A stretch of DNA of 64,000 nucleotides from Acidobacteriota bacterium. Its GTDB lineage: Bacteria > Acidobacteriota > UBA6911 > RPQK01 > JAJDTT01. Location: NCBI GenBank assembly GCA_965263035.1, contig OZ253580.1:1760001-1824000 (forward strand). The letters run 5' to 3'. This document shows, piece after piece, positions 44,384 through 61,550 of this stretch; positions within the stretch are counted from its first letter, which is position 1, and each line of letters begins with the position of its first letter. Made by a program: the position numbers and the translations under genes. Under the pieces are notes generated by a model, which saw nothing but the letters and a program-made list of their open reading frames with translations, was not told where the DNA came from and ran no database searches.

Positions 44384-44520
44384 CCTTGTATATTATCCAT
44401 AGAATGGACAATTAACAAGGATAGAATCCACTCCGAGGAAAGAAGCCGTCTATGTATTCCACAGGAACAAGAATACCTCCGCTCGTGGGCGCGTGGGCGG
44501 GTCCGGCACGCGTTCCCGAC

Positions 44521-44631
44521 TTACCCGTCCACCTGGACGTGCTTCATGGCCTCGTGGGCCGGAGACGGCTTCCCCTGAACGTGCAGGAAGGGGTACCGGT
44601 AGTCCTCCTCCCCCACCCAGCAGAACTCGCC
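44521..44631 (-). repeat. Third copy of the PhyH 3' tip (about 110 bp)
   Basis: Matches 61551..61661 and 42762..42872 (ggacgtgcttcatggcctcg...gtagtcctcctcccccaccca). Confidence 0.9.
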
Positions 44632-44779
44632 ATTTTATCAGCGGGGCGCTCGAAGAACCCAACGTCTTCGGGACCCTGGGCCAACTGACCAGGTCGTTTT
44701 GGCGCGCCGTCACTGACAAGTGGGTAGCCAGACCGATTGTCTGGCTCCGAAACCCCGTGCTTGGGGGAAGGTTCATGCT

Positions 44780-47700
44780 TCAACCCAAGATCATTCCGTC
44801 GATGACCGATGCGATCACCGCTGCATCCAACCCCCCGCCCGGCTCGTCCCGAGTTTCGATCAGCGTTCCTTCCAGGCCTCCGCCGTCCTCGTGAGGCCGA
44901 ATTCCGCAGTCCAGGTACTCGGCACGCTTCCGCTCCCATCGGGCTCTGTACCCTTGGTCGTCGAGCATGCCGAGATGCTCCCAATAGAAGGTCACGCCCC
45001 GCGCGTGATCCGCGATCGTGAAATCCGGGTAGCGGGTGCGACCATTGGCCAGCACGAGAGGCTGCTCGTAGGCGTAGTCGATCCCGCGCGCGTAAAGCTT
45101 GTCGGCAATCACCAGCTCGGACTTTGAGCGCACGAGATCACCGCGCTCGGTTCGATGAATGAGCCCTTCCTCGAGGAAGCGCTGCTGGGCGTTGACGGTT
45201 ACTTCGCGCGGCCGCGGATCCGCGAAGAGGTTCGTCATGCGCCGGGCGATCTCCGAGTGCTCGTCGCCTGCATAGCGGCGATACTCGACAAGTGGGCCTT
45301 CGTGCAGGATGACCAGCCGGTCCTGGTGGCGGGTCAGCGCCGTGTACAAGAGCTCGCGGGAGAGCAGCCAGCAGGGGTTGGTGAGTACGACGAAGGTGAC
45401 GCCGAACTCGCTGCCCTGGGTCTTGTGCACCGTCAGGCAGTAGGCCAGCTCGAGCGGGTTGCGGCCTTCGTCTCCGAACTCGCCGGGGTAGAACCGGTAC
45501 TTGGGGCCTAGTTGCCCGGCGAACTCGACCTCGAGCTTCCACGGCATGCCCCTGAACTTCTTCGTCTTGTACTCCCCGACGATGATGCCGATGTCGCCGT
45601 TGGCGAGGTAGGCCTCCCCAGCGGGCTTCGGCCAGACGTCGCGCCCGCGCTGGTTGATGACATTGATGACCTTGTCGCCGTAGAGGAGCATCTGCGGGCC
45701 GACGGGACGCGGCACCTTGCGACCCCAGCCCTCCGCCTCGGCAAGCTCCCGCGCCTCCGCCCGGAACCGCCTTTGGAGCATGCGGTTCAGCGCGTCCACC
45801 CCCACGAGGCCGGCGCGCAGAGGCGAGAGCATCTGCCACGCTTCCGCCCGCGCGGCGGCTCCCGGGTTGTCGCCGAAGCGGTTCCAGAAGAAGGCCCACG
45901 GGATACCCCCGTGACGGGCGCCGCCCAGCGATTCCTCGAAGCCCAGTTCGTCGTCCGGCCCGGCGAGACCGAGCGCCTCGACGAGTTCCGCGACGAGCTT
46001 CTCCTGAAGCTCCTGCGGGTGGTTCCACCGCACGAGCCGGAGGCGTCCGTCTTTTCCTTCCTGTCCCTCGTCCAACACGGCGTCTGCGCCAGGATCGAGC
46101 GGCCGTCCGCTGAAGTGCGATGCCAGGAGCACGTCGGCCCGGGACTCGCCCTGCTGGCGTCGCGGGATCGTGAGCCCGGCATAGCTCGGCCCGTAGCGCG
46201 GAAAGAGCGTCTCGACATTCTCGGGCTCGAGCTCTCGAACGATGTCCACGAACGGGCGACCGGCCCCAATCGGCGGGAGCTGGCGCGGGTCCCCGACGAG
46301 CACAAGCCGCTCGACGTTGCTGAGCGAGTCGATCAGCGCCGCGAGCTGCTCTTCGGTGAGCATCGAGCACTCGTCCACGATCACGGTCCGGTAGTCGCCA
46401 CAGCGAGGCGCCCTGAGCTTGGGAAAGTAGGCGCCGGTCTCCCCGTCGTAACGTTGCTGCCGGATCAGAAACTGCGCCAGCGTCCGGCCGGCACCCCGCC
46501 TGCCGGTCTGCTCTTCCAGGCGCACACGGGCCTTGCCCGTGGGTGCCAGGAGCAGCAACCCCTTCTCGGCGAGACCGGGAAGCGAGCAGAGCATCCGCAG
46601 CAGCGTCGTCTTGCCCGTCCCGGCCGGGCCGATCAGCACGGAGAGCCGCGAGCGGAAGAGCTGCTCGAGCGCCGCCGCCTTCTCGCGCCGCGCGCGCTCC
46701 TCCAGCTCGCGCTCTTCCGGATCCGTAGGCAGCGCCTCATCGATCCCTGCGTCCACGAGCCCACGCCAGTCGAGTTCGGCCACGTGCGGCTTCCCCTTCT
46801 TCCGGCCGAGCACTTCGCGGCGGATGATCGTACGGCACTCGATGAGCCGGTCCACCTGGTAGGCAGGCTCGTCCTGACGGGTTGCCGCGCACGCGACGAC
46901 CGGCGCGAAGCTCTCCTCGCAGGCGTCGAGCACGTTCTCGCCGAGCGGGCACGGCGGCTGGAGCGCTCGCTCCCGCGCCCTGCGGATGACCCAGCTCCGA
47001 GGGAGCAGCGTGTGGCCCTCGGCCGCTGCGTGCTCCAGGAGGTCCGCGACCAGTGCACGTACACGCCGTTCGTCGGCCGGGTCTTCGATGCGGCTCGGCT
47101 CCAACACTGGGAACTGCTCCCGCACTGCCTCGTCCGGGAACAGGCCCCGGTCCACCGCGCCAAAGGCAATCGGGTCGGCGGCGCGCCGGTCGTGCTCAAA
47201 GAGGAGGTAGGGATTGCGCAGCAGCTCGGCGTCGCTAGCCTCGATGCCGGCCTGCGCCCGTGCTGTGGTGTCGTAGAAGCGTAGCGCCTGATCCTCCGAG
47301 ATGGCGCAGCGGCCGAGGAGTTGGAGCAGGGCCCGCCGCTCGTCGGTTAGGCGCTTCCAGCCCTTGCGCAGCCCGTCCGTGAGGAGCTTTGCCACGGGAC
47401 CACCAAGCTTCGCGGGATCATCCATCACGGCGTCCACGAGCGCCCACGGATCGCCGCCGCCCTCGCGCTCGCGCTCGCGCAGCAGTTCGATCTCGTACGC
47501 GAGCAGGCTCCCGTGCTGGAAGCCCCACTCGTAGCCGAACGCCGAAAGCGCCGAGCCGAGGCCGGGGAACGCACCGCGCGCCCTCCACAGGCGGTTGAGC
47601 TGCGTATCGATCCAGGCGAGCACCTCAACCCACGGTCCCTCGATCCGGCCGCGCACCCGGTGCAACGTCGCGGCGCAGGCCACGAGGGAGGCCACGGCGC

Positions 47701-48601
47701 CATCGTGGGTCAGGAGTTCCGAGCCGTAGGAGTAGGCGTCGAAGTGCTCGTCCGGGGCGAAGGCCACGAACTCCTCGGGGTCGACCCCCTCGCGTTCGGC
47801 GAGCGCCAGCGCTTCCTGGTAGGGAAAGAGGAAGCCGTCCGCGAAGCCGGGCCGGACCGAATGGCCCACGTTGCACTCCCAGAGCACGCACCGAAGCGGC
47901 GGGTTCTTGACCTTGTATGCGTATTCGGTGGCCTCGCCGACGGAGAGCACCCGGCCCACGCCGACGATCACGCGCCGGGACTGCTCGGAGAGCGGGGTGC
48001 GCTTGGCATAGAAAAAGCAGAGCGACTCCTCTGGCCGGAGCGCGCCGAAGAAGGTGTCGAGCAGAGCGAGCTGGTTCTCGCGCTCCTGGACCCAGGCCGT
48101 CTCGACCTGCTTTCCGCCGCGGCTGCGGATGTCGGGCTCGCCGTCTGGCACCCAGCGGATCTTCAGGCGCTCGGCGATCCCGATCTCACCGTTCTTTGCG
48201 TTCCCCTCGACCTTCTCGCGAAGCATCCAGCGGAACGGAACGCAGGCAGCAGAGTAGGGCGATTGCACAAAGCGGGTGGGTGCGAAGTGGCCGTGGGTCT
48301 TGGGGTAGAACTCCGTGTACGGGTGGGTCATCGTCCGGGTGAGCGAGAAGGGCGCCATGAACGAGACGCGCTCGCCCACGCAGGGTGGCAGGTCGGCGTG
48401 GTCGAGCTCGTCGAGCCGCTGACCCGCGCAACGCGCCTCCACGTCGTCGCGCCGGCCTTCGCCGATGCGGGGAAGGACGAGGCAACTCGAGTTGTCCAGC
48501 GGCCGGGCACACACCGTCCCGGACCAGCCCCCGTCGTGCCACGGGACGCGGATGGTGACATGGTGGGGCGGAAGGCGGCGGGCGCCGGCGAAGCTTGTCA
48601 T
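44780..48601 (-). CDS. RecD-like SF1 helicase with Cys/His-rich N-terminal domain and C-terminal PD-(D/E)XK/Vsr-like nuclease
   Basis: GPAGTGKTT, APTGKA, IVDECSM, VGDPRQLPPIG, AYCLTVHKTQGSE, LLYTALTR; C-terminal RSKSE...YEQP...PDFTI...WEHLG. ATGA overlap with the RT stop. Confidence 0.9.
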   Translation of the reverse strand: MTSFAGARRLPPHHVTIRVPWHDGGWSGTVCARPLDNSSCLVLPRIGEGRRDDVEARCAGQRLDELDHADLPPCVGERVSFMAPFSLTRTMTHPYTEFYPKTHGHFAPTRFVQSPYSAACVPFRWMLREKVEGNAKNGEIGIAERLKIRWVPDGEPDIRSRGGKQVETAWVQERENQLALLDTFFGALRPEESLCFFYAKRTPLSEQSRRVIVGVGRVLSVGEATEYAYKVKNPPLRCVLWECNVGHSVRPGFADGFLFPYQEALALAEREGVDPEEFVAFAPDEHFDAYSYGSELLTHDGAVASLVACAATLHRVRGRIEGPWVEVLAWIDTQLNRLWRARGAFPGLGSALSAFGYEWGFQHGSLLAYEIELLREREREGGGDPWALVDAVMDDPAKLGGPVAKLLTDGLRKGWKRLTDERRALLQLLGRCAISEDQALRFYDTTARAQAGIEASDAELLRNPYLLFEHDRRAADPIAFGAVDRGLFPDEAVREQFPVLEPSRIEDPADERRVRALVADLLEHAAAEGHTLLPRSWVIRRARERALQPPCPLGENVLDACEESFAPVVACAATRQDEPAYQVDRLIECRTIIRREVLGRKKGKPHVAELDWRGLVDAGIDEALPTDPEERELEERARREKAAALEQLFRSRLSVLIGPAGTGKTTLLRMLCSLPGLAEKGLLLLAPTGKARVRLEEQTGRRGAGRTLAQFLIRQQRYDGETGAYFPKLRAPRCGDYRTVIVDECSMLTEEQLAALIDSLSNVERLVLVGDPRQLPPIGAGRPFVDIVRELEPENVETLFPRYGPSYAGLTIPRRQQGESRADVLLASHFSGRPLDPGADAVLDEGQEGKDGRLRLVRWNHPQELQEKLVAELVEALGLAGPDDELGFEESLGGARHGGIPWAFFWNRFGDNPGAAARAEAWQMLSPLRAGLVGVDALNRMLQRRFRAEARELAEAEGWGRKVPRPVGPQMLLYGDKVINVINQRGRDVWPKPAGEAYLANGDIGIIVGEYKTKKFRGMPWKLEVEFAGQLGPKYRFYPGEFGDEGRNPLELAYCLTVHKTQGSEFGVTFVVLTNPCWLLSRELLYTALTRHQDRLVILHEGPLVEYRRYAGDEHSEIARRMTNLFADPRPREVTVNAQQRFLEEGLIHRTERGDLVRSKSELVIADKLYARGIDYAYEQPLVLANGRTRYPDFTIADHARGVTFYWEHLGMLDDQGYRARWERKRAEYLDCGIRPHEDGGGLEGTLIETRDEPGGGLDAAVIASVIDGMILG

Positions 48602-51600
48602 AACCAACCTCCCTGCGCTGCCGTTTTCAGACCTGCGGGGGGATGCTTCCAGCCGTCGGCATTGGCTCCCGAGATGTCGTGGCGCTCCAGGAACCCGCCG
48701 ATGTCGTCGATTTCGAGGAACGTGATCGAGGCCTGCTGTCCGTGGGTGTGGAAGATCTGCCTAATGTGAGCATCGCTCCTCGGCCAGTAGGCGTTGCTGC
48801 CGCCGTACTGCCCGTTGTTGGCGACGACCACGAGTTGGAACATGTGATAGTGCAGCGCCAACGCCATCTGGTCGAACGTCTTAACGTCTTTGTTGAGCGC
48901 CGGGATCGCCAAGATATCTGACTCATCCCTGAGATCCGCAGCGAGGCCGAGATCCGTCGCATCATAGCAGACGGTCGCAGTCAGCCATAAGGGGCGGTCA
49001 CCGTCCGCGTCAGACCACGGATAGCCGATCAACCACTGGCAGGGCCGGAATCCCTGAAGAACGTGCGCCCCACCACCGTTGAACGCTTGCTCATTCGGGG
49101 CGAGGTGAGCCTTACCTTGACGGCGAGTCTTGATCTGCAGCCCGTAGGCGTCCGACCACTCCGGCATGACCCACAGGGCTGAGTTGACGAGCGGTTGCCC
49201 CGCTAGAATCTCTTCGTAGGTCAGCCCGGCGAGGATCATCGCCCTGTGAGCCCGTGCGAAAGGGACCAGATGAGTACGAACGTCCTTCGGATGGACGGCA
49301 AGCTCGGGCAGAATCAGCCAATCGAGCCGCCCTTCGCTCCCCTTGTGCGTCTCTCTCAACGCCAGCATGCGTTCCACGGCTGCGAGCGCTGCCGACAGGT
49401 GATTGCGGTGTCTTCGCCGAATTGCGGACTCGTTGAGTGCTAGGTCTGTGTGCTGCAAGTCACCGGTCGCCGGGATCGCTGTCTGGACCACGCAGGCACG
49501 CAGCGGCCTCGGCGTGTTCGTCGCTGTCGGTCGCCGGACCAGCAGCGGCAGGATCAGTGCGCGGGTAGCGCTACCTCGGCGCTGCTCGAGATCGGCGATC
49601 CTCTGGCCAATCTGCGTCCTCGCCTCTTGGATGCCCTGCTCGACCCAGCCGAACCCATCCGGAGCACGGCACCCCGGCCAGCGCAGGAGGCCCAGGAGGA
49701 GTCCTTCTACCCAGTCCGTGATCGGAAGCCAGTCGTCTCCGAAGGCCGGCTGCCCGCTATACAGGCCGTACAGGCGCTGGTACCAGTGGCTCTCGGCAGG
49801 GCGATAGAAAGACTCAGTCTCTTTCCAATGTCTCCTGCGGACGGGACGCGTGAAATCCGGCTGCCCCGACAGGATGAACCGGAGCAGAAAACCGAGTTGG
49901 AAGCGCCACCCCTCGCCGGCTTCACACCACGCGGGCACCTCGTATGGGGAGCCCGATGCGTCGGCCCGACTCCCCAGGATCCGCAGCGTTTCTACGTCAG
50001 CGACCGCCCGGTCCTCGCCGAGCTTCAGCGTGACCTGGCCTGGGGTGATCACCTCGGGCGGAAGCTTCTGCTGCTCCCACTGTTCGAGGAAAGCCCTCGC
50101 GAAGCGCAGAAGGGAGAGCTCGTTGCGAAGAGAACCGCTCGGGTGCGTATTCAGGACCGCCTTGGCCAGCGTGTCGTGGCCGCCGTCAGCCCCCTCCGGA
50201 GCCCGGCAAAGGTCCTCGCGGATGCGCGCCGGAAGGTCGTTGAAGAGAAGAGTATCCGTCGCGGTGTCGATGATCTCGAGAAGAAACGACGGGTCCCTCT
50301 GAGCGAGCTGCCGCCTCCTTGACGGACTGAGGCCGGGCCGCGTCAACTCAACCGCCCGCGCTCGATCCAAGAACGCACGTCTGGCGAGAACCGCGAGCGT
50401 CGCAAAATCCGAACTCCGGAGGCGGTCTCCGTCACCGCGCAGGAATCGGATCAGCTCCCGGTAATGCCGGGTCTCCGGTACCGTTCCCGTGCGCACGACG
50501 GGCGCCCCGACGGGATCGCAGACGGCGAGGAACAACAGCGCCTGCTGTCGTAGGTACCAAGGAATCGTCGGCCCGGGCAGGGCCACCAGGCGAGCGGCCT
50601 CCCCGCGAAGCTCCTCGCGGTAGGATTCGAGGTCGATCCCCAAGGGGAGCGATTCGGTGTCCGCCACGAGCGCCGTTTCCGTGGCTCCCGCGCGCAAGAC
50701 TTCAGCGAGGCAGTACCAAGCGACTCGCCTCGGCGCCTTTCGCCGCCCCCCCTTTTCCGTGAAAGGGCGGAGCAGTGAGAGAACTTCCCGCAACAACTCC
50801 ACATCCGGCCAGAGATCGAGGCCAATCCGAAGCAGGCGAACGTTCGATGGGTCGTCGATCCACCGTTGAATCAGACCCAGCGCAAACGCCCTCGCATCCT
50901 CGTCCAGCTCGCGCCGTGTACGCGCCACGCGCGGTCGCCCACCGGGCGGGGTATCGCCTCTACCAACCTCAGACTCGTCCGGCGTGTCGTCGTCTTGGAG
51001 CAGCGGCCTGATGGAACGGAACGTGGTTCGATATCGGGCAGCGCCGAATCTGGCGACCGTCTCGTCCCGAACGTCCGGGACCGGGGAAAACCGCCAGCCA
51101 CTGTCGTCCCCCACGCTCAGGGCTTCCTGCGCGCGCATCAGGCCCTGGATGGCATCGAGGATCTCCTCGCCGCCGAGCGCGTCGAATCCCCCCGACACCG
51201 CCGACTGGATGCGGTTCATCTTCGCGCTCTGCCGCACCAACGGTCGTTCGTCGCCCCCTAGCGCTGCGACTTGGCTCTTCTCGGGGGACAGCACGAGGCC
51301 GGTCGCATTCTCTTCCAGAACCTGACTTAGCCATCTCGAGACGGTCTTCTCAAGGTCATTCGACGAGCCATCCGACTTCGGGGCAACCGCAACCAGGATC
51401 CGCAAGTCGTCGACGTACCGGCACGAGTCCGCCACCCGGATTCCGGGGGCGATCTCCGTCCCGATCGCCACGCGCAGCACCTCGTCGAACGAAAGGAGCA
51501 CGACGTTCGCGAAGAAGCCGGAGGCGACGAGTCCCTGTGGCAATGCCACCCGCGTGAAGTCGTCCAACTCCGCCTGCTCTGCGTACATCTTGACATTTTT

Positions 51601-52356
51601 TTCGTCACGCGGATGCCAGCCCCAATTGAGCACGGACGCCGCCAGAGAAAAAAACGCCGGGTCATCGCCGTCGCGGCGGATCCGGTCGAGCGCTCCGGCA
51701 AGCAGATCCGGGCGCACGCGGTCGTAGAATTGCCGAATGTCCGCATGGACGACGTAGACGCGCTTTCCATCGGCTGCCGGAATCGACTCGGCCGCGACTT
51801 CCGGCCGGGAGAGGAACGCGCGGTAGTCCTGGTAGTAGGCGCGGTAGAGCTTGGCGGATCCCCACCGATGGCGCAGTTCGCCATATATCGCGTCGCAGAA
51901 CAGCCGGTTGCCATAGGAGACCACCTGCCTTCGCGACTCCTGATCACGTACCGGCTGTCGCGGATCCCCTTGCAGCGTCTCGACACGGTCGGCGAGACAG
52001 AGCATCAGCGCCGTCGCCACCACCTGGTCGGCCAAGCTGACGTGAGCGAGCGGTCGAAGCCGTGCCGAGCGCGCCCCCTTGACGGGCTCCCACACGCCTT
52101 CCTGCACTCGCCAGCGCTGGCTCTTGGGCGCCGGAACGATGCGTAGAGGATCGTTCTGCCAGCTCTCCAAAGACTGCAGGCGTTCGCCGAGTTCGCTGAG
52201 AAACGCCGGCAGGTTCACGGCCGCGCGGTCGAGAGCAAGCGTGTCGGAGAACCAGTTGTGGTAGCGGATGTAGGACGCGGTCTTCTTCCAGGCCTGAACG
52301 AGGACGTACTCCTCGCGGAGCAACTCCAAGCGCGGTTTGAGCTGCTCCTGAACCAT
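48598..52356 (-). CDS. Reverse transcriptase fused to a C-terminal nitrilase (carbon-nitrogen hydrolase) domain; UG1/DRT1-like defence-associated RT
   Basis: RT motifs LRPL, ADIRQFYD, LPQGLVASGFFAN, RYVDD; nitrilase triad ILPEL (E), QGK (K), VCYD (C), plus VANNGQYGGS. Confidence 0.88.
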   Translation of the reverse strand: MVQEQLKPRLELLREEYVLVQAWKKTASYIRYHNWFSDTLALDRAAVNLPAFLSELGERLQSLESWQNDPLRIVPAPKSQRWRVQEGVWEPVKGARSARLRPLAHVSLADQVVATALMLCLADRVETLQGDPRQPVRDQESRRQVVSYGNRLFCDAIYGELRHRWGSAKLYRAYYQDYRAFLSRPEVAAESIPAADGKRVYVVHADIRQFYDRVRPDLLAGALDRIRRDGDDPAFFSLAASVLNWGWHPRDEKNVKMYAEQAELDDFTRVALPQGLVASGFFANVVLLSFDEVLRVAIGTEIAPGIRVADSCRYVDDLRILVAVAPKSDGSSNDLEKTVSRWLSQVLEENATGLVLSPEKSQVAALGGDERPLVRQSAKMNRIQSAVSGGFDALGGEEILDAIQGLMRAQEALSVGDDSGWRFSPVPDVRDETVARFGAARYRTTFRSIRPLLQDDDTPDESEVGRGDTPPGGRPRVARTRRELDEDARAFALGLIQRWIDDPSNVRLLRIGLDLWPDVELLREVLSLLRPFTEKGGRRKAPRRVAWYCLAEVLRAGATETALVADTESLPLGIDLESYREELRGEAARLVALPGPTIPWYLRQQALLFLAVCDPVGAPVVRTGTVPETRHYRELIRFLRGDGDRLRSSDFATLAVLARRAFLDRARAVELTRPGLSPSRRRQLAQRDPSFLLEIIDTATDTLLFNDLPARIREDLCRAPEGADGGHDTLAKAVLNTHPSGSLRNELSLLRFARAFLEQWEQQKLPPEVITPGQVTLKLGEDRAVADVETLRILGSRADASGSPYEVPAWCEAGEGWRFQLGFLLRFILSGQPDFTRPVRRRHWKETESFYRPAESHWYQRLYGLYSGQPAFGDDWLPITDWVEGLLLGLLRWPGCRAPDGFGWVEQGIQEARTQIGQRIADLEQRRGSATRALILPLLVRRPTATNTPRPLRACVVQTAIPATGDLQHTDLALNESAIRRRHRNHLSAALAAVERMLALRETHKGSEGRLDWLILPELAVHPKDVRTHLVPFARAHRAMILAGLTYEEILAGQPLVNSALWVMPEWSDAYGLQIKTRRQGKAHLAPNEQAFNGGGAHVLQGFRPCQWLIGYPWSDADGDRPLWLTATVCYDATDLGLAADLRDESDILAIPALNKDVKTFDQMALALHYHMFQLVVVANNGQYGGSNAYWPRSDAHIRQIFHTHGQQASITFLEIDDIGGFLERHDISGANADGWKHPPAGLKTAAQGGWL

Positions 52357-53675
52357 ACCTCAGCCCCCCAGCACCTCGACCAGTTCCGCGATCACCTGCA
52401 ACTGGCCTTCGTCCGCGCTGGTGAGCACGATCGGCTCGAAGTCCGGGTTGACGGGGTTGAGGGTGATCTCGACGTGACGCCAGGAGTCTCCCTCCTTCGC
52501 CTTCTTGCTCTTGTAGCGCTTGACCGTGTAGCGCTGTCCGGTCTCCGGGTCGGTGGCTTCACGAAGCTGGACGAGGACGATCTTGCCCTGGCGCGTACCC
52601 TCGACAGGACCTCGAAAGAGGCACCAGGCACCGTCGCGAATCGCGGGCTCCATGGACTTGCCGACGACCTGGGCGACGAACATGCCCTTTCGCAGACGAT
52701 GGCGGGACTTGAGAGCGACCCACTCGAAGTCGTCGTCTTCGATGTGCTGCGGATCGCTGAAGGTGCCGGCGGCCACCCTAAGCGGGATGAGCGGCACGCA
52801 GGTGACGTAACGGTCCTCGGGTGCGGGCCCGACCGTAGGCGGCCGAAACGGGACCACCTTCGCCGTCCCCTCTGATGCCGCATCCGCCTCCGACACGCCC
52901 TGGAACGCGTCGGGCCAGCCGCCATGGGCTTCGATGACCTCGTCGATCTCGGACATGATGCGGACGGTCTCATTCAGGGCGACGACGATCTTCTGGTAGT
53001 GGGCGATGTCTTCATCCGAGAGCGTGCGGCCCTTCCGGTCCTTGAGCCACTTGTGGCAGACCTGGTAGCCGCCGATTTGGAAATCCCAGACCTCCCCGGG
53101 CACACCCCTGAAACCCATCGTGCCGGGCTTCGTCGCGTGGTGCCCCTCGCGCGCAATGGTCTTGCCCGCGTCGATCCACACGGTGCCGTCCGACCAGCCC
53201 GCGCGTCCGACTTCTGGGAGCTTTGGGCCGGTGTATGTCGTGATGGGCTTACCGAGTTCCGGAGACTCGAGCAGGTGGAGGGCCAGCACGTCATGGCCGA
53301 TCTCTGCCAGCCCTCGGAAAAGGTCGACGCTTCCGGGCAGAGGTACGCGGGGGAAGTCGAACTTGAGCTGGGCCTCATAGCGGCTCCGATAGCCGGGGCT
53401 GTGGAACACCGTGTAGATGTAGGCGAAGACGTCCTCGGGGCCGAAGGTCTTCCAGAGATCGCCCCGGCCGTCGCTGACGAATCGCAGTTCGGTGGCGGCC
53501 GCAATCTGCTCGACGAACCCCGAGTCCAGATTCGGAGTGCGGCCGTCCTTGCCCTTTGTCCAGCGGTTGAATAGCGAATCGTCGGCCCTGCCGACTCCGG
53601 GATAGAGGTAGAGCGGAAAGAGTGAGTTGACGTCGTAGGCCGAGCAGGTCTTGTGCGCAATAATGCTCGATGTCG

Positions 53676-54764
53676 CTAGTGTGGTGTCCTGGAAATACGA
53701 GTAGATAATCGTGCTAGCTTGTCCAGGATGGATTGGGCTGTGGCGGCCCACACGAAGGGTTTCGCCTCTTGGTTGTATCGATGGGTGAATTCCTCAATCG
53801 TCTTCACCAAGTGTCTCACGTTGCGGAACGAGGTGCGCTTGATCGCTCGCTGTGTGATCAAACCGAACCAGCGCTCCACTTGGTTGAGCCAGGAGGCGTA
53901 GGTGGGGGTGAAGTGTAAGTGGTAGCGTGGCCGCTTGGCAATCCAGGCCCGGACCCGTGGATGCTTGTGCGTGGCATAGTTGTCGACGACCAAGTGGAGG
54001 TCCAGATCGGGCGGCACTTCCCGGTCGATCAACCTCAGAAAGGCCAGGAAGTCCTGGTGGCGGTGGCGCTTCTTGCATTGAGCGATCACGCGACCCGTGG
54101 CGGCATCCAGGGCCGCGAAAAGGGTGGTGGTGCCGTGGCGGATGTAATCGTGCGTATATCCTTGAACGTACCCGAGACCCAGGGGCAGGGCCCGTTGGGT
54201 CCGGTCCAGGGCCTGGATTTGAGACTTCTCGTCGACGCACAGCACCATGGCGTGGTCGGGGGGATGGAGGTAAAGTCCCACGATATCTCGGACCTTCTCG
54301 ATGAAGAAGGGGTCGTTGGAGAGCTTGAAGGTCTGGGCCAGATGAGGCTTGATGCCAAAAAGCGAGAACCAGCGCTGCACGGTGGTCTTGGAGACGCCCT
54401 CGGCGGCGCCCATCAAGCGCACGCTCCAGTTCTCGGCGTTGGCCGGCTTCTGCTGCAGAGCGCGGCTGATCACCTGGGCGACCTTCTCGTCGTCGTAGCT
54501 GCGGGGACGACCGGGACGAAGCTCGTCATGCAAGCCCTGAACGCCGAGTTCGAGGAAGCGTCGACGCCACTTGCCGACGGCTTGGGGCGAAGCCCCGACC
54601 CGTTCGGCCACTGCCCGGTTGGTGAGGCCCTCGGCACTGGCCAGGATCATGCGGGCTCGCAGGACCAAGCCGTGAGGCAGACTGGTGGAACGGGCGACTC
54701 CCTGGAGTTGATGTCGCTGCTCGTCGCTGAGTACCAAGGGGGGAAGTTTGCGTCCGCGGGGCAT
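53676..54764 (-). CDS. IS630-family transposase
   Basis: [54 protein letters not shown]. Confidence 0.97.
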
Positions 54765-54831
54765 AGGCAGTCTCCTTTCTGAATGAGGAACCGCCTATTA
54801 TTATACACGAACTAACGGGACACTACACTAG
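53676..54831 (-). mobile_element. IS630-family insertion sequence (coordinates include both CTAG)
   Basis: TIRs ctagtgtggtgtcc / ggacactacactag with a duplicated (C)TA(G) target. Confidence 0.93.
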
Positions 54832-57511
54832 CGCGCCCCACTTATCTCTCGTCTGCCTCGTTGTGATTAGGCCGACGTTCTCCCCCGCGAGCATGTGCCG
54901 CATAATCTGCTTTACAGTTCGCCACACCAGCGAATCGTGATAGAAAATCAAGCGTTGGTCGAAGGGGCGATAGAGAACCGGCTTGATGTGTTCTCCCAAC
55001 TCCCTTTCACCTCCAATCAGTTTTCTCGCGTTGGGTATGTTCCACCCCTTCTTCAGCGGAATCCCCAGTCGGCGGCACAGTTCCTCATCAGAGTCTTTCG
55101 AATCGCGAAACTCACGTGCCCGCTCGAGCAATGGTGCTTCAGCGAAGTCAATCACTACATGGTCCCGTGCCGTCGTCATTCCAACACCATTCACCGGCAT
55201 CACTTCGGTGATTATCCAGCCCTGTTCGTATTCGGCTTTCAGTTCGGTGTCTTGCGGCACGAACAGGTAGAATGGCCGCTGTGGTCGCAGCACCATCCAT
55301 TCCGTGCTACCAGCATCGGTCGAGAGGAGCGTTTCGTACTTGCTCTCCCGCAGCTCCCACAGGTCGGCATGATGTAACTTGGCTGTGCTCCTCTTCCCCG
55401 CCTTATTTATAAAGAGTCCGAGCGCCACCCCCTGCTGGATGTCGAAGACGTTTTCATCTTTGCCTCCGTCCGGCGCGCGTTCCTGCTTCTTCGAGTTTCC
55501 GTGAAGGTCGAGCAGGAAGAGCTGATCGAACGTCGCAAGCAGTGCCCGCCGCACTCCTCGGAAAGTCGGGCTGTCAACATAGCTGTGGTTCGTGATGAAG
55601 CCATGAATGCCGGCACCAGCCCGCTCAAGTAGCCATTGTGAAAATCGCGTGAAGCGGACGTAGAGATCGTTCAGCCACTTCGGGTTGCGCTCATTCAGCG
55701 GCTCACCGTCTACCTCGAAGTAGCTCAACGTGCTTCGGCCACTCTGGAGTTCCTGACCGCGCATGAGCGCTGCGATCCAGTCCCCACCGCGACCTGCTTC
55801 GCCAAGGTACGGCGGATTCCCGATCACCACCGTGAACCGTTGATTCCGCTTGATCTCGTTGACCGCTTGGGCCTCGTGCGCCAGGGCCGGCAGGAAATCC
55901 AGGGTGAGCTGCCTACTTCCCGCCGGCTCCAGCGCGTTCGTCAGGTACACACGCGCCCGCTCGTCGCTCCCGAAGCGGTAGCCGGTCTCGTAGAGCTTGA
56001 GGCCGATCTTGAGGTGCGCGATGGCGTAGGGCGCCATTAAGAACTCGTATCCGTGCAGGCGCAACAGGAGGTGTTCCGGGACGTAGTGGTTCCAGAGCGC
56101 CTCGATCTTTTTCTCGCCGTGGCCCTGAGCCTTCCACTCCTCGACCATCGTCTTGTGGATAAGGTCGATTACCTCGACGAGGAACGTGCCGGTGCCGGTG
56201 GCGGGGTCGAGGATCTGGACGAAAGCCTGGTCGGGCGGCGTGCCGTTGGGGATCTCGAGATCTTCGTGCCGTTTCGCCATCTCGCCCCAGGTCGTTGTGT
56301 CGGCGAGGCCGTCAGTGAGGCCGAAATCGCTCCGCAAGAGCTGGTCCACCGAGCGCACGATGTAGGAGACCACCGGGCGTGGAGTGTAGAAGACGCCCCG
56401 GCTCACCTTCTGCTTCTTGTCGTAGGCGGCGAGGAAGTGCTCGTAGAAGTGGATGACCGGGTCTTCCCGGGGGTTCCGGTCGCCGAAGTCGAGGACGACG
56501 GCCTCCATATTAGCCTGGTCGAGTAGCTCCACCACCTCGGAGACGCCCAGCTCGTCGAAGTCGATGCCTAGCCCACCGGCCTTCCCGCGGCGCCCTCCCG
56601 CGTGAAGGAAGGTCTCCATCAACTCCTTCAGAAACGGGTTCGTCCGCATGTAGGCGGCGAGGTCGTCGGCTGTGCGCCGCGCCGGGTCGGTGATGCGCGC
56701 GGACAGCAGCCCGTATGCGAGGGTCTGGGCGTACATATCGGCGAAACCGTCCTCGTCCAGGTCGTGGACGAGCGCGGTCTGGAAAGCCTTCATAAGCTTG
56801 GTGAGCGGCCCGGACTCGGTCTCGATGGGGAGCGCCGTCCGGATGCGGTCGCGGATGGCGCGGGCGAGCTTCGCCAAGCGCTCCGAGAGCTGCTTTGAGG
56901 TGCTGATGACCTCGCGGTGGCGCAGTGTGAAGGCGGCGCGCCAGCGCTCGCGCCAAGCGTCGGGGTCGCCCTCGTCGTCGGGCCAGGCGAGGTGCGTGGT
57001 CAGCTCGCTAGCGACGGCGTCAAGGTGGAGCGGCGTGTCGAAGTTGTCCCAGCCGAGCACCTTGAGGGTGGGCAGGTCGTGGCCGTCCCGGGGCTTCGAG
57101 AAGTGCGCGAAGACAATGCGCCGCTCCTCGCCCTCACCGTAGTTGGAGACGAAGAGCAGGTCGTCGGCGGCCCAGGCCTGGCGCTCGGACTTGTTGGCCG
57201 AGGCGCGCTCCTTGAGCGCCACCTGGCCGAGGATGCGGCGCAGCGCCACCACGGGCAGGCGCTTCGGCTCGAACTTGACGAAGAAGATGCCCCAGGGCTG
57301 GCCCGTCGCGAGTGGGCGCAGGCGCTTGATCTCCTGGATCTTGGCCGCGTTCTTCGCGTCGATCCCGAGCTCCTCGGGGGTATAGTCGAAGGTCATTTCT
57401 TCGAAGTCGTCCGAGTCGATCGGCCAGCCGAGCTCGTCGCGGAGGTAGGCGACGAGTTGGTCGAAACGGCGGATGCATGCGAGGCGCTCCCGGTGGTTGG
57501 TCGGCATCGGT

Positions 57512-60500
57512 TCAGCCCTCGTTCAGCTCCATCCAGCAGCGAAGCCGCGGCTTGACGCCGACGGGGGCGTCCACGCGCTTCAGGTAGCTGTTCTTGATGT
57601 GCTTCTCGATCCGCTTGCGGATGTCGAGGAGCGTCTTCTCCTCCATGGTGCAGCGCCGGGGCGTCTCGGGCTTCGAGCGGATGCTCGCGACGATCTCGCC
57701 CGGCTCCTCGAGGATGGTTTCGCGGTCGAGGTCGTAGAAGTACCAGCGGGTGGTGCCGGCCTCCTCGGTGAACTCGTTCTTCTCCTTGTCGAGGGCGGGG
57801 AGCGCGTAGCAGAAGAAGACACCGCGCATGCCCTTCGCCGGGCGCTTGCGGCCGCTGAAGATCGCGCCGGGGAAGCGAGCGAGGCGCGCCTCCAGCTCGG
57901 GGTCGGCCTGGAGCAGCGCCTGGTACTCGAGATGCATGTCCTCCACGGCCGTGCGCGTGCCCTCGTAGGCGTGGTGAAACTCCTTCAGCGCCTCGTAATC
58001 GTCCTCCGGGGTGAGGAGCTTCTTGCCCTCGATGCCGAGGGTCTTGGAGATCAGGAGCGTCTTCTGCGTGACCTTCGTGTAGAGCGAGAGGATCTCGTTC
58101 AGCTCCTGAGGCGGGAGAAAGTTCCAGAACCAGACCCTGCCGCGCGAGGCGGCCGCCTCGGGATGGTCGGCGACGAGCCGCTTCTCGATTGCGGGATTCA
58201 TGCGGCGGTCCACCCGGCCGATGCGCTGCATGAGGCGCACCGGGTTCCAGTGGATGTCGTAATTGATCATCCGCGAGGCGTCCTGGAGGTTGAGACCCTC
58301 GGAGAGGACATCGGTGGAGATCAGGACGCGGGTCTCCTCGCTGCCCCGCTCGGCGAGCTCCGGGGACGAGCGGCCATTGTAGTAGGGCGCGAAGCGCTGG
58401 ATGACCTCTGAACGGTTCTTCTTCGTGGCACTGTCCACCTGCTCGACGCCCTCGATACCGGCCTCGTCCAGTTGACGCTTGAGGTAGCGGGCAGTGTCGG
58501 CGAACTCGGTGAAGATCAGAATCTTCTGGTCGGCCAGCGCCTTTGACTTGAGCAGGCGGATGAGCTTCTGGAGCTTGTCGTCGTGCTTCGGCTCGAACTT
58601 CCGGGCCTCGGCCAGGAACCGAACGATCTGGTCGAGGTCGAGGAAGGTCTCGGCCATCATCTCCTTGACGTCGTACGCGGCACGGTCGAGGCGCTCGACC
58701 GCCTCGAGCATCTCCTGGGGGACGACGTCATCATCGTCTGCCTCCTTGCCTTCCTCGCCCCAGAGCTCGAACTGGCGCTGGACGGCGCAGCCCAGGATGT
58801 CGGCGTTCTGCGCTTTCCACCTCTTGAGGCGCTTCTTCTCGGCGTCGCTCTCGCTGTGGACCTCGATGAAGGCCAGCAGCTTCTTGAGCAGGCGGTCGCA
58901 AGAGAGTTCGAAGGCGGCGACGGAACTCTCGAAGCGCTTGAGAAAGTTGGTCCGGATGAGGCCGATCACCTGTCTCTGGCGGTTCTCCTCGAACGGGTCG
59001 ATGTCCTTGTCCGGCCCCCTGTACCAAAACAGGGGGTAGTACATCGGGAGCGTGAAGAGCGGGCTCTGCTTGGCGAAAGCATTCTCGAACAGCTCGAGCA
59101 TCCGCCCGTAGGTCTTGCGGATCGAGTACGCTGCTACCTGAGGGTCCCTCCGGTCGGGAAAGGCAGCTGCTTTGCCGTACTCCCGAATCTGGCTCTCGCG
59201 GGCGTAAGCGCGGCTCCGCTGGACGACGAGCTCGCGGAAGAATGCGTCGGTGAAGAGGATCTCCTGGGCTTCGATCATGTGCTCCGCAGCATCCGCCACG
59301 TCCTGTCCCAAACGGCTGCGAAGCATCCTTTCCATCTGGCTGAAGTGCGCCCTCAGGTTGTTCACGCCGATCGTGCGCGCGAAGTAGGACTCGTCACGAC
59401 GCGTGAAGAGCTCGGTCATGTGGCGGAAGTCGCTCAGACGGTTGTTGATGGGGGTGGCCGTCAGCATGAACACGGTCTTGGGGCGTTCCGCGTTGTCGAG
59501 TAGCTCGAACAGGCGGTAGTAGCGCGACGGTTCGATTCCCCTGTCGGGATCACGCCGGCGGCCCGGATTGCGGAAGTGGTGTGCCTCGTCGATGACAACG
59601 ATGTCGGCGAGTTCCGCAATGCGCTGGAAACGCTGCGGGAAGTCCCCCTTTCGTCCGAGGTCGGTGTGGCTGAAGACGGCCAGGTTGCTGAAGTCCCCGC
59701 CACCGCCGACGCCGCCGATGTGCGGAAGCCACTGACGCAGGTGGGGCTCCCATACCCCCTCCTTGGCCCCCTTCGGTGCGAACAGCGCAACACGCTTGCC
59801 CTCGTGAAGGATGAGCCGCTCGATCAGCATCAGACCGACGAAGGTCTTGCCAAGACCCACGCCGTCACAGAGGAACGCACCGCGGTGCTGCCGGGCGATC
59901 TTCATGAGCGCCCAATACGCCTCCTTCTGATATCGATCGAGGTGCGGGAACATGCGCGACCGTGTCTCGTCCCACTCGGTCGCGGTCAGCTCGTGCCCCC
60001 GGAAGAACTGCTGCAGGGCCTTCGCGTAGACGTCGAATGGCGAATACGGGTGCGTATGGCGCGAGATCGTCTCGATGACGGCCTCGGTAACCCCGCTCGC
60101 TTCGTTCCAGTGCGTCTCGAACCACTCCTGGAGCTGCGCGACTTCGCGTGAGCTCTGGATCTGGACGTTCAACTCGATGTTCTTCGTGAGACCCGGACGC
60201 GTGAAGTTGCTGGAGCCCACCAGCGCCTGGGAACCCACTACCTCAAGCTTTGCGTGGGTGATGTAGGCCTTGGCGTGGAATTTGGCCTTGTCGTAGACAC
60301 GGCATTCGATCTTCCCGGAGCGGAGCGCGTCGAGGATCGCAGAGACCCCGTGCAGGAAGGGGTTCGGCTCCTTGTCCTCCTCGATGCTTTCGTCGAGCCT
60401 ATCGAGCGCTTGCGCCCGAACCGCTTCGAGAATGGCCTTTCGAGTCCGATGGGTGGTCTCCGCCCCCATCAGGATCCGGATCTTGTCGAGCCCCTGCCAT

Positions 60501-60661
60501 CTGCCGTCGAGGGTGAGCAGAGCGCCGATCTCGAAGTATCCGGTCGCGATGTCGAACGCCTTCGCGATGCTGGACCACTCCTCCAAGTACCGGAGCCCGG
60601 TCCAGCCGGAGACACTGTTGTCGACGATAAAGAGCTCGTGGCCCTTGGAGTCAGCGGTCAT
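57512..60661 (-). CDS. SNF2-family helicase with N-terminal PLD nuclease domain
   Basis: IATGYF, HAKAY...GSSNFT (PLD), DGVGLGKT, IDEAHHFRN, LTATPINN, KRFESS, IFTEFADT, SEGLNLQ, WNP.RL.QRIGRVDR. Confidence 0.93.
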   Translation of the reverse strand: MTADSKGHELFIVDNSVSGWTGLRYLEEWSSIAKAFDIATGYFEIGALLTLDGRWQGLDKIRILMGAETTHRTRKAILEAVRAQALDRLDESIEEDKEPNPFLHGVSAILDALRSGKIECRVYDKAKFHAKAYITHAKLEVVGSQALVGSSNFTRPGLTKNIELNVQIQSSREVAQLQEWFETHWNEASGVTEAVIETISRHTHPYSPFDVYAKALQQFFRGHELTATEWDETRSRMFPHLDRYQKEAYWALMKIARQHRGAFLCDGVGLGKTFVGLMLIERLILHEGKRVALFAPKGAKEGVWEPHLRQWLPHIGGVGGGGDFSNLAVFSHTDLGRKGDFPQRFQRIAELADIVVIDEAHHFRNPGRRRDPDRGIEPSRYYRLFELLDNAERPKTVFMLTATPINNRLSDFRHMTELFTRRDESYFARTIGVNNLRAHFSQMERMLRSRLGQDVADAAEHMIEAQEILFTDAFFRELVVQRSRAYARESQIREYGKAAAFPDRRDPQVAAYSIRKTYGRMLELFENAFAKQSPLFTLPMYYPLFWYRGPDKDIDPFEENRQRQVIGLIRTNFLKRFESSVAAFELSCDRLLKKLLAFIEVHSESDAEKKRLKRWKAQNADILGCAVQRQFELWGEEGKEADDDDVVPQEMLEAVERLDRAAYDVKEMMAETFLDLDQIVRFLAEARKFEPKHDDKLQKLIRLLKSKALADQKILIFTEFADTARYLKRQLDEAGIEGVEQVDSATKKNRSEVIQRFAPYYNGRSSPELAERGSEETRVLISTDVLSEGLNLQDASRMINYDIHWNPVRLMQRIGRVDRRMNPAIEKRLVADHPEAAASRGRVWFWNFLPPQELNEILSLYTKVTQKTLLISKTLGIEGKKLLTPEDDYEALKEFHHAYEGTRTAVEDMHLEYQALLQADPELEARLARFPGAIFSGRKRPAKGMRGVFFCYALPALDKEKNEFTEEAGTTRWYFYDLDRETILEEPGEIVASIRSKPETPRRCTMEEKTLLDIRKRIEKHIKNSYLKRVDAPVGVKPRLRCWMELNEG

Positions 60662-60864
60662 GATGCTCCCTGCCGGTCCGCAAAGCGCATTGCGACCATC
60701 TGCGTGCCAGCAGCGTCCTTCTTGCCCTTCAGACCCACACCGGCACGTTCGGGATCTTGCTTGATACGGACACAATTACCGGGATCGACAATCACGGCGA
60801 CATTCCGAATCAAGGTCAGTCGGTCCTCCAACGGGTTAAAGTCTCTCGTCGTTTTGTCGCCCAT
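60658..60864 (-). CDS. Small ORF translationally coupled to the helicase gene (may be a remnant)
   Basis: 68 aa; its TGA overlaps the helicase ATG (ATGA). Confidence 0.35.
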   Translation of the reverse strand: MGDKTTRDFNPLEDRLTLIRNVAVIVDPGNCVRIKQDPERAGVGLKGKKDAAGTQMVAMRFADRQGAS

Positions 60865-60946
60865 AAAGCAGAGTACTGTGGCTTGAAAGTTTTCACCCAG
60901 AAATTCGCAAGCAGTTGTTAAATAGGGACTTAGGAGGTATTCTCAA

Positions 60947-61375
60947 GCCCCGATTTTATCATAGTCATTAGGTAGTCTATCGGTACCATACAATAGATAA
61001 CAAAAGACTTACACAAAACCGAGGGCCTGAACAATGGGCCGAAAACGCGAACATCAGCTTCCGCTCTCCGGGCTCTGACCCGATCACCAACTCGCCCAGG
61101 AGCTGAAAGTCGTTTCCAGGATCTTGGAGGAATATCCCTCGGTCCTGGATCCGGTCTTACACGATCTGTGTGACTCCGTTCGCTCTGGCCAGGGCGCTCC
61201 GGGTCTGTCCGCGGAGCAGGTGCCGCACTCAGCCATCCTCAAGAACTGGCATCAGCTTTCCTACACCAAAGTGGCTTTCCACTCGAGCGACTCCCAGAGT
61301 TTTCGTTGCTTCGCCCGCCTAGCCTTCGGCTGCTCCCCAAGTGCTTCCTGTCTGTCGGAGAACATCCCCTACGAT
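60947..61375 (+). pseudogene. ISNCY/IS5-like transposase N-terminal remnant with probable left end
   Basis: From ATG 61034: MGRKREHQLPLSGL*PDHQLAQEL...GAPGLSAEQV...LSY..VAFH..DS.SFRCFARL; in-frame stop and truncation. Confidence 0.7.
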
Positions 61376-61384
61376 CGGGGGGGG

Positions 61385-61509
61385 CTGTAGGCGAGGCGCA
61401 TCTCTTGTATGGAGGGCTCGTCGGCGGGGCGGTCGGGGGCGGAATTATCGGCTATCAGTTGGGAAAGAGCCGGGACCGGGAAACCACCATCATCACGATT
61501 GTCGACTGA
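61385..61509 (+). pseudogene. 3' fragment of a third glycine-rich membrane protein paralog
   Basis: GGGIIGYQLGKSRDRETTIITIVD matches the end of 37935..38510 (GKRKDRETTIIKIVD). Confidence 0.75.
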
Positions 61510-61550
61510 CTCACCGGAATTTTTTCCGGCGCAAAGCGTGGACTCGAGGA

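Follow-up and report, generated by a model that had tools for sequence, protein, structure and literature searches.

Type ISP restriction-modification (RM) enzymes are single polypeptides with an Mrr-type nuclease. Among the defence-associated reverse transcriptases (DRTs), DRT1 of the UG1 group protects E. coli as a single gene, only ~18% of drt1 genes are accompanied by drt1b, and Dda, a superfamily 1B (SF1B) helicase of T4, is required for DRT1 triggering (PMC13275509); the sole UG1 partner given in the passages of Mestre et al. 2022 that were consulted here is a transmembrane (TM) protein, present in 33/175 (PMC9226505). Independent defence systems are also embedded, mostly in the same orientation, in Hma, BREX, DISARM and Type I RM operons (Payne et al. 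2024, bioRxiv 10.1101/2024.01.29.577857). Here we describe four minus-strand genes, G1 to G4, in a 64,000-nt stretch of an Acidobacteriota genome (assembly GCA_965263035.1, contig OZ253580.1, positions 1,760,001 to 1,824,000; hereafter the window, in whose coordinates positions are given), where an RM-like pair resembling Type ISP and Type IIG enzymes is followed by a DRT1-type gene (Drt1a) and by a gene of the PDC-S68 family. We consider it probable that this is a recurrent operon of three separable anti-phage modules, spread by horizontal gene transfer (HGT), which would act as a layered defence.

The operon is made up as follows, from its leader to its last gene.

60662..61551, minus strand: operon leader, GC 0.556, containing a repeat element of ~480 nt at 60888-61366
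57512..60661, minus strand: G1 (open reading frame (ORF) call), 1049 aa, HKD/PLD nuclease and SNF2 ATPase
54829..57507, minus strand: 5' part of G2, 893 codons, with the N-terminal region, the methyltransferase (MTase) and the start of the target recognition domain (TRD)
53679..54828, minus strand: insertion sequence (IS) of the IS630 family, 1150 bp, with a transposase ORF at 54764..53676
52360..53676, minus strand: 3' part of G2, 438 codons, with the remainder of the TRD and an S24 tail
48598..52356, minus strand: G3, 1252 aa, Drt1a (UG1 / DRT type 1)
44780..48601, minus strand: G4, 1273 aa, PDC-S68

An earlier note on this DNA had described four minus-strand genes with 4-nt, 3-nt and ATGA junctions, and at the nucleotide level the locus reads exactly so. 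G1 starts with an ATG behind GGGAGCA and stops with TGA at 57514-57512; after a gap of 4 nt (ACCG) the G2 ATG stands at 57507; the G2 stop, TGA at 52362-52360, is followed by 3 nt (GGT) and by the G3 ATG at 52356; and the G3 stop (TGA, 48600-48598) and the start codon of G4 (48601-48599) share bases in an ATGA. There is no space for a separate G3 promoter, an Rfam scan of 42000-64000 returned no non-coding RNA, and a small TM partner is likewise missing, the G3 stop overlapping the G4 start, all of which agrees with the earlier note. Its claim of elevated GC is also borne out, by a margin of ~5 points (0.642 in the island at 44632-61551 vs 0.591 in the remainder of the window; 0.686 in G4), and its domain calls stand for all four genes in Pfam and PADLOC, the nuclease at the G4 C-terminus only by fold match and conserved residues. 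The set is not one catalogued system, as the note had surmised: a run of PADLOC-DB 2.0.0 labels G2 as Type IIG RM, G3 as Drt1a and G4 as PDC-S68 separately and assigns to G1 only the generic 'HKD+Snf2' profile, and the operon proteins reach no equivalog cut-off in NCBIfam.

To ask how often this order occurs, flanks of 63 Drt1a loci, one genome per species, were searched with the partner proteins. The earlier note had made its proposal depend on reverse transcriptase (RT) homologues being recurrently linked to these partners, and they are, since the same partners recur in the same order in Drt1a loci. All four genes are found in the same order and on the same strand in 7/63 loci (L003, L005, L011, L016, L020, L053 and L058), and G1-G2-G3 with G4 truncated or gone in 3 loci (L001, L056 and L063). 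Full-length G4 directly follows G3 in 11 of the 63, an N-terminal remnant of G4 (its first 20-590 residues) does so in 7 further loci, and a remnant of the S24 tail directly precedes G3 in 7 loci. By our own tally, an adjacent partner or remnant is present in 25/40 loci at >=58% Drt1a identity and in 0/23 at <=55%, the distant loci being mostly from Alphaproteobacteria; judged by record titles, the hosts belong to Acidobacteriota, Binatota, Pseudomonadota, Nitrospirota, Thermodesulfobacteriota and other phyla. In the Drt1a tree the partner-linked rows form one 26-row clade (100, starred) and a small group of L018, L020 and L050, and two 10-row alphaproteobacterial clades are without partners. 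The spacing recurs with the order: G2 and G3 are either 3 nt apart or overlap by 4 nt in 7/8 other loci where this junction is intact (L001, L005, L011, L016, L056, L058 and L063; not L020). In a sample of 401 genomes of the phylum, the sole other full-length PDC-S68 of this type (genome G381) lies directly behind an 80%-identical Drt1a.

The gene order is kept down to 59% identity for G3 and 51% for G4, and the histories of these two genes are discordant. L020 and L014 share 60% identity in G3 and 86% in G4, and L058 and L014 share 66% and 88%, respectively; five loci have one G4 type at 82-91% identity with Drt1a at 59-81%, and the L058 Drt1a is nearer to that of the window than to those of the others. 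Because the G3 and G4 histories disagree, partners have been exchanged while the architecture was kept, and the arrangement is not one frozen accident. DNA homology among loci runs from ~9 nt before the G1 ATG to at most ~80 nt past the G4 stop, and since it stops at the operon ends, the conserved unit is the operon and not a larger island or mobile element. These observations bear directly on a rival explanation, a chance defence-island mosaic in which one lucky cassette was spread by recent HGT with its order unselected. DNA identity of the cassette reaches 91% between phyla, every module also occurs alone, decay is frequent, and in L009 and L048 PDC-S68 paralogues lie near Drt1a in other arrangements resembling ordinary islands, all of which a mosaic would accommodate; what it does not predict is that order and near-zero gaps are still found where the proteins share 51-59% identity and where G3 lineage, G4 type and TRD have been exchanged, that homology is confined to the operon, and that all-against-all clustering of 1,074 neighbour ORFs yields only G4 (14), G2 (13) and G1 (9) as large recurrent clusters. 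We regard the mosaic as very unlikely.

Members of the linked Drt1a clade also have other RM-like neighbours (L018:6249-10004, L032:6070-9699, L008:7150-9942 and L009:13827-17453). These are an MmeI-like MTase whose gene overlaps the start of Drt1a, a further MTase that is IIG-like, a DUF499 protein, and an MTase on the downstream side, and Drt1a of this clade seems to be drawn to several kinds of RM operon. At L010:1-3490, an Eco57I-type MTase with S24 at its end and a second S24 copy, which is frameshifted, stand in that order before Drt1a; this may be the trace of a restriction-gene replacement before the same Drt1a.

Whether the modules are INTERDEPENDENT can be asked of the loci in which some of them are missing, and the comparative data show them to be separable. 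G1-G2 occurs without G3 and G4 at six loci (L077, L147, L153, L154, L155 and L156), G3-G4 occurs without G1 and G2 at L014, L037, L051 and L065, and intact G3 alone is common among Drt1a loci. For PDC-S68, metagenome contigs were searched with the G4 profile and relatives were counted only where at least 1.5 kb upstream was readable; full-length relatives had no upstream Drt1a in 14/14 such metagenome or genome loci outside the operon family, L009 and L048 included. Of the single composite system that the earlier note thought possible, the linkage of the four genes is recurrent, and their interdependence is not supported: each module occurs alone and DRT1 suffices alone (PMC13275509). The settings in which PDC-S68 relatives were found are other defence operons:

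L073 (1345-13644): HsdM-HsdS-bSEFIR-PDC-S68-HsdR, a Type I RM operon in which hsdS and hsdR are separated by two additional genes, one for a bSEFIR/TIR protein and one for a PDC-S68 relative
L074: HsdS-PDC-S68-HsdR, with PDC-S68 alone in the hsdS-hsdR slot
L075: BrxC/D-PDC-S68
L076: DUF6079-MTase-PDC-S68-SNF2-PglZ
L081: PDC-S68 relative in an MmeI-like MTase operon
L068, L071, L085 and L048: PDC-S68 relative beside SNF2 or ResIII helicases
L077: G1-G2, then three unrelated genes, then a 38% PDC-S68 relative

The layout of L073 is PrrC-like. The idea that PDC-S68 is always paired with an upstream abortive-infection effector (Drt1a, or TIR/bSEFIR in L073) was dropped, as L074, L075, L076 and L071 have none. 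That the added genes guard the RM complex, as the earlier note had suggested, may hold by analogy with PrrC/EcoprrI, gene order being the evidence available.

The identities of the four genes and their catalytic motifs, which are intact, are as follows. G1 has an HKD/PLD domain at ~aa 98-231 with one motif (FHAKAYITHAK...GSSN), and an SNF2-type superfamily 2 (SF2) ATPase with GLGKT at aa 269, DEAH at aa 358 and Helicase_C at aa 734-857 of the longer ORF. Its Pfam matches are PLDc_2 (9e-13), RE_NgoFVII, ResIII, SNF2-rel_dom and Helicase_C (1e-19), and its best PADLOC match is C3a139 'HKD+Snf2' (8.7e-58), with DrmD at 2e-32; the NCBIfam scores for phospholipD_antiphage (151.9 bits, cut-off 1100) and DrmD (138.9 bits, cut-off 610) stay below the cut-offs. 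G2 carries a gamma-type N6-adenine MTase, with DPATGTG at ~aa 441 and NPPY at aa 564, behind a stretch (aa 1-345) that matches no Pfam family. Pfam finds N6_Mtase and Eco57I as well as Type_ISP_C (PF18135), whose positions 1-124 are matched on the 5' half and 127-341 (1e-51) on the 3' half, and the PADLOC model REase_MTase_IIG (PDLC03610) is matched at 4.4e-159, with 530 + 146 bits on the two halves. The TRD is the DNA-variable stretch between ~90%-identical flanks across loci, as one would expect if selection for diversity acted on the specificity gene of a working RM system.

Behind the TRD, a linker of ~30 aa leads to a LexA-type S24 domain (52363-52821) with a VAAG cleavage-site motif, a GKSMEP Ser and a TVKR Lys. 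Pfam Peptidase_S24 matches it at 9.4e-10, or 1.2e-10 when the domain is searched alone, and a phmmer sequence search of the PDB gave no chain at E 0.01 or better. Ser56 and Lys101, corresponding to the Ser-Lys dyad, are invariant in 12/12 aligned domains; the Ala-Ala is invariant too, and the next residue is Gly in 10/12 and Ser in 2/12.

G3 is a full-length Drt1a, matching PADLOC PDLC03745 with 1243 bits over residues 3-1243 of the protein and 3-1176 of the 1176 profile positions. It also matches PDB entry 9YFD (Defense-associated reverse transcriptase 1) at E 7.7e-118 in the stretches 5-614 and 820-1221, and consists of the RT, a helical repeat region and a C-terminal nitrilase. The RT active site, YVDD at 314-317, is invariant in 31/31 aligned sequences, and the nitrilase is recognised by PADLOC RTasNitrilase (6e-57) over aa 737-1244. 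E1018, K1082 and C1130 are invariant in alignments of 31 and 51 sequences and are presumably the Glu-Lys-Cys triad of the nitrilase, an assignment made from the motifs and not by superposition. Another invariant residue, S388, is two positions away from where the priming Ser402 of DRT1 aligns. A Drt1b-like gene is absent from the locus, where the ORF at 44450-44776 has no PADLOC or Pfam match; among small ORFs downstream of distant Drt1a genes, no Drt1b-like PADLOC model was matched, in a library that may contain no such model.

G4 matches the PADLOC PDC-S68 profile (PDLC05065) with 1522 bits from end to end (protein 14-1272, profile 5-1218 of 1221). Its helicase core has both Walker motifs, GPAGTGKT at aa 658-665 and DECS at aa 743-746, and a profile of the core finds RecD2 (3e1s, 5.9e-40), RecD (4e-37), Pif1 and Dda (3upu, 2.1e-10) in the PDB; the NCBIfam RecD2 score is 193 bits vs a cut-off of 500. 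These profile matches place the core among the SF1B helicases, closest to RecD2 and RecD; 5'-3' polarity would follow from family membership. The N-terminal ~475 aa contain invariant R18, W21, G28, C31, P34, N37, C40 and C74 and are modelled by AlphaFold2 with pLDDT 89; for this domain Pfam gives no family, Foldseek no match in the PDB below E 0.16, and the ESM Atlas no named or usable match. The best Foldseek matches (E 0.16) are two small archaeal proteins, which we take to be EVE/PUA-like and treat as a lead only. The AlphaFold2 model of the C-terminal 180 residues (pLDDT 83) gives Foldseek matches to Bax1, the nuclease domain of DrdV, R2 RLE and Hjc at E 3e-3 to 0.1, none at 1e-3 or better, those to Bax1, DrdV and R2 RLE having E 3e-3 to 5e-2 and prob 0.8-0.98. 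Across 28 homologues of this domain, E68, D99, E114 and H115 (domain numbering) are invariant and K131 is near-invariant, with the conserved motifs S, K, E / YE / PDF / WEH, and Pfam has no match. The model and these residues suggest a restriction-endonuclease-like, PD-(D/E)xK-like C-terminus.

In the layered-defence reading that we prefer, the operon, lying within a horizontally acquired island, would be co-transcribed and translationally coupled. G1 and G2 would form a split Type ISP/IIG-like RM system, in which G2 reads and methylates the target, the SNF2 motor of G1 translocates with ATP, and the HKD nuclease cuts unmethylated invaders. Drt1a would work as published for DRT1, with protein-primed, template-free single-stranded DNA (ssDNA) adducts and a dormant, ssDNA-decorated filament, and its nitrilase domain would kill or arrest the infected cell in an abortive response in mid-infection. 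PDC-S68 would contribute an SF1B helicase with a nuclease-like C-terminus and a sensor-like N-terminal domain. Restriction would thus act first, with abortive infection and the helicase-nuclease as backup layers, and the modules would stay together because defence becomes layered when they share a promoter and are transferred jointly, in line with what is known of defence genes 'embedded' in RM, BREX or Hma operons. We infer these enzyme activities, the co-transcription and the layered logic from gene content and order.

Several observations weigh against this reading. For transcription, methylation, restriction and phage protection the evidence presented here is sequence-based; RNA-library contigs over the region consist of a relative of the IS and of pieces at 90-95% identity, offering no usable expression evidence, and a promoter scan found 1 site vs 1.7 expected, lying inside the IS. 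The Drt1a loci were retrieved with patterns from the window's own G3, which biases the counts to relatives of the operon. Decaying copies are found in L011, where G2 contains a stop, in L003, where part of G2 is deleted internally, in L053, where both G2 and G3 carry insertions, in L063, where G3 is hit by an IS and G4 is truncated, in L001, where G4 is truncated, and in the window itself, with its IS in G2; and, with the window counted, 4/11 loci with G1-G2-G3 look fully intact, although part of this damage may be error of metagenome-assembled genomes (MAGs) or of long reads. Finally, the S24 tail is present on 11/12 G2 genes preceding Drt1a and in 0/6 G1-G2 pairs without Drt1a, and this co-occurrence, the tight coupling of the genes and the repeated re-pairing of Drt1a with PDC-S68 fit a closer tie than independent layers.

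Such a tie is the substance of a second rival, a wired system in which the S24 tail, Drt1a and PDC-S68 form a second line that is gated by damage or anti-restriction and senses how the RM complex is faring. On RecA-ssDNA filaments the LexA-like tail would cleave itself, and PDC-S68, as a Dda-like 5'-3' helicase-nuclease encoded by the host, would act on the ssDNA adducts by which DRT1 filaments are kept dormant, freeing the nitrilase. The tail and Drt1a are indeed gained or lost together in the G2 family: three state changes are needed on the G2 tree, where L147, with neither of them, and L063, with both, are sisters (100/100), and the DNA of these two loci, 86% identical across G1 and G2, diverges exactly at the TRD end. 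G2 proteins without Drt1a end 7-35 residues past the TRD motif HGGWPxAF or bear another tail. Only two of the three changes are informative, however, being losses, and at L020 Drt1a follows a G2 with a different tail. The L010 MTase, of a different, Eco57I type, likewise ends in S24 before Drt1a, and the conservation of the S24 Ser, Lys and Ala-Gly site described above favours wiring as well; intact Drt1a nevertheless occurs without S24 and G4 in many loci (e.g. L004, L007, L008, L019, L057 and L062) and with G4 but without G2 in L014, L037, L051 and L065. The re-pairing of Drt1a lineages with PDC-S68, the lack of a drt1b-like gene at the locus, and the triggering of DRT1 via the SF1B helicase Dda (PMC13275509), with Dda among the PDB matches of the SF1B-type G4 core, would all suit a role for G4 in activation. 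On the other side stand the 14/14 readable loci with PDC-S68 relatives but no Drt1a, and L073, where the bSEFIR beside PDC-S68 is, going by the name of its PADLOC model, a defence gene in its own right. We consider the wired system unlikely, while giving it more weight than any other rival.

A more specific form of it, in which the S24 tail is a RecA*/ssDNA-responsive switch built into restriction-type defence proteins (a IIG/ISP MTase here, HsdR and DrmA/B-like proteins elsewhere) and in this operon family wires RM to DRT1, and PDC-S68 is a host stand-in for Dda that strips the adducts responsible for the dormancy of DRT1 filaments, appears to us decidedly doubtful. Here, cleavage of the tail on phage- or restriction-induced ssDNA would alter the RM complex and license the co-translated Drt1a. 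If true, it would provide a defined host-encoded trigger pathway for DRT1 and an SOS-like proteolytic control layer in restriction systems.

With the S24 domain as query, a protein search reached 2,830 longer proteins (E 1e-5 or better), and among the 120 best listed, all but one (119) have the Type ISP TRD; because the arrangement is so abundant in metagenomes, G2-S24 is not a curiosity of one MAG. The wider distribution of the S24 subfamily also argues against wiring to Drt1a. The subfamily matches 26/401 genomes of the phylum sample (E 1e-12 or better). In 22 regions (L158-L179) it stands at the C-terminus of HsdR-like proteins (L158), of DEAD/Helicase_C/MZB proteins of ~2,000 aa, which are DrmA/B-like (L159 and similar regions), and of an MZB protein in the window's own genome, and at the N-terminus of an HsdR in L174, and in none of the 22 is Drt1a near. 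The S24 tail thus looks like an accessory of restriction proteins in general, in the first place, and on them it is perhaps an SOS-linked switch, for example for restriction alleviation. The window's own genome has an MZB+S24 gene at G000:C1:483606-484064 (L167), 1.3 Mb from the operon.

Two further candidate rules about G2 tails were discarded. The alternative tail, seen at L020:9190-9837 and in L153 and L163, consists of two repeats of a ~60-aa motif (…ARELGYxRTGxRI…), and a tie between it and Drt1a was dropped, as L153 and L163 have no Drt1a. A rule that S24-bearing restriction proteins always precede a module of the abortive infection (Abi) type was also given up, as the followers vary: AAA_15/AAA_21 ATPases (L158 and L169), a Schlafen-like helicase (L173), and elsewhere TnpB, a sulfatase, a cytochrome-type protein and unknowns.

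In the window, G2 is split by the IS630-family element at 53679-54828, which has imperfect terminal inverted repeats (53674-53703 and 54804-54833), a TA on either side (54830-54829 and 53678-53677), and a transposase ORF with DDE_3 (2.3e-22) and helix-turn-helix (HTH) domains. When the IS and one TA are removed, the two halves, read by hand, join in one frame of 893 + 438 = 1331 codons. The genome holds 4 full copies of this IS at 100% identity and one of 1088 nt, and the insertion is recent, because the four full copies are identical. Contigs of 4 runs on 52000-56500 contain no joint skipping the IS; two DNA-type runs contain this stretch exactly, and the depth of the IS is ~4-5x that of its flanks. 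Owing to the split G2, the RM layer in this genome is most likely dead. The frames of G3 and G4 are intact in the window, and their expression would depend on read-through from the IS or on another start. The IS also creates an ORF of 463 aa (52360-53751), which runs from a GTG in the IS end into the TRD and S24, so that a truncated TRD-S24 protein could still be made.

The operon lies in an island that was acquired horizontally. In a 20-kb DNA search, 44001-44631 abuts 61551 onward in 8/8 other genomes of the same genus, and because the flanks are contiguous in all of these, 44632-61551 (16.9 kb) is an insertion peculiar to this genome. It is bounded by direct repeats:

44522..44631, strand not given: left copy of the direct repeat, 110 nt, island border (repeat family D2, 90% identity)
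61552..61661, strand not given: right copy of the direct repeat, 110 nt, equal to the 3' end of the resident PhyH-like dioxygenase gene

The repeat occurs a third time 1.8 kb further to the left, at 42763-42872. The resident PhyH-like gene (61551-62351, minus strand) has sub-threshold NCBIfam matches to ectoine hydroxylase and chlorinating-enzyme families. Its 3' end is present in three copies (42755-43137, 44522-44631 and 61544-61926), which share 110 nt in all and 300-378 nt in two, with a DUF4143/AAA_14 ATPase gene in the first interval between them and the 16.9-kb defence island in the second; the PhyH-like 3' end looks like a reused insertion hotspot. No integrase was seen among the ORFs of the island, neither an Rfam RNA nor a tRNA turned up in scans of the island with its flanks, and a scan for promoters and terminators gave fewer sites than in shuffles. 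The ~480-nt repeat at 60888-61366, upstream of G1, occurs at least 8 times in the genome, with 77-81% identity among its copies, and there are more in congeners. It may supply the operon promoter; it is not conserved upstream of G1 at other loci.

An island without an integrase in a reused insertion site could also serve a non-defence role, in DNA repair or in the maintenance of a mobile element, for example as an island addiction module: RM-like pairs can be selfish addiction modules, and S24 domains belong to SOS biology. Yet G3 is a full-length member of a family with experimentally proven anti-phage activity (PMC13275509), the G4 family has been proposed as a phage-defence candidate and is found inside RM and BREX operons, and G1 and G2 have RM architecture, so that we find a non-defence role hardly credible.

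All four genes belong to known kinds or are closely related to them, and embedding has been described before. A main-text literature search did not find the four-gene order, the coupling of the Drt1a clade to PDC-S68 and to IIG/ISP MTases, or S24 tails on restriction proteins. A search for an S24 peptidase fused to an anti-phage methyltransferase found no paper, and a looser one returned only irrelevant matches; in the UG5 paper (PMC13436386), helicase and LexA go unmentioned and methyltransferase appears only in the reference list. A main-text search for the name PDC-S68 found no paper using it. The operon offers concrete partners for the unsolved activation step of DRT1, namely the SF1B helicase-nuclease and the LexA-like tail, and S24 tails on HsdR-, DrmA/B- and MTase-type proteins hint at proteolytic control of restriction, possibly restriction alleviation. 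If the modules are independent, as the layered-defence reading holds, the operon would be a clean case of defence embedding spread by HGT with ongoing IS decay.

Compared with known systems, the RM-like pair comes closest to Type IIG enzymes and to the Type ISP enzymes of the LlaGI/LlaBIII type, with which latter G2 has in common a gamma-class N6-adenine MTase, NPPY and the Type_ISP_C specificity domain. The ATP-driven SF2 motor and the nuclease of such enzymes are present as well, but they are supplied by G1: motor and HKD/PLD nuclease lie on G1 and MTase and TRD on G2, so that the pair is not a single polypeptide, and G2 differs from both Type ISP and Type IIG enzymes in its additional S24 tail. 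The domains of G1 are similar to DrmD, DrmC and HmaA, which recalls DISARM (DrmC PLD, DrmD SNF2 and DrmMI) and Hma; G1 nevertheless scores far under the NCBIfam cut-offs (138.9 vs 610; 28.4 vs 133), and the DISARM core genes DrmA and DrmB (DUF1998/MZB) and the Hma ATPase are absent among the ORFs of 44780-60661. The G2 tail shares with LexA, UmuD and CI the Ala-Gly site motif, the GxSMxP Ser, the Lys and the Pfam family Peptidase_S24, but its N-terminal partner is a 1,180-aa MTase-TRD and not an HTH.

As co-oriented additional defence genes in an RM operon, G3 and G4 resemble PrrC/EcoprrI and the embedded systems (Payne et al. 2024; TgvAB in a Type I RM operon of V. cholerae, PMC11411939), and the likeness extends to PDC-S68 relatives that fill the exact hsdS-hsdR slot (L073 and L074). 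In contrast to PrrC/EcoprrI, the added genes of the window are appended after the MTase and not placed between RM genes, and the operon has neither an ABC-ATPase nor an anticodon nuclease. PDC-S68 is listed in PADLOC-DB v2 as a single-gene 'phage defence candidate', which G4 matches end to end, whereas here the G4 start overlaps the stop codon of Drt1a; the PDC names very probably go back to Payne et al. 2024. G3 agrees with published DRT1/UG1 in its full-length profile match, its homology to 9YFD and the positions of YVDD and the nitrilase, and differs in having no drt1b-type small membrane gene beside it; instead, it is coupled translationally to an MTase-S24 gene upstream and to PDC-S68 downstream.

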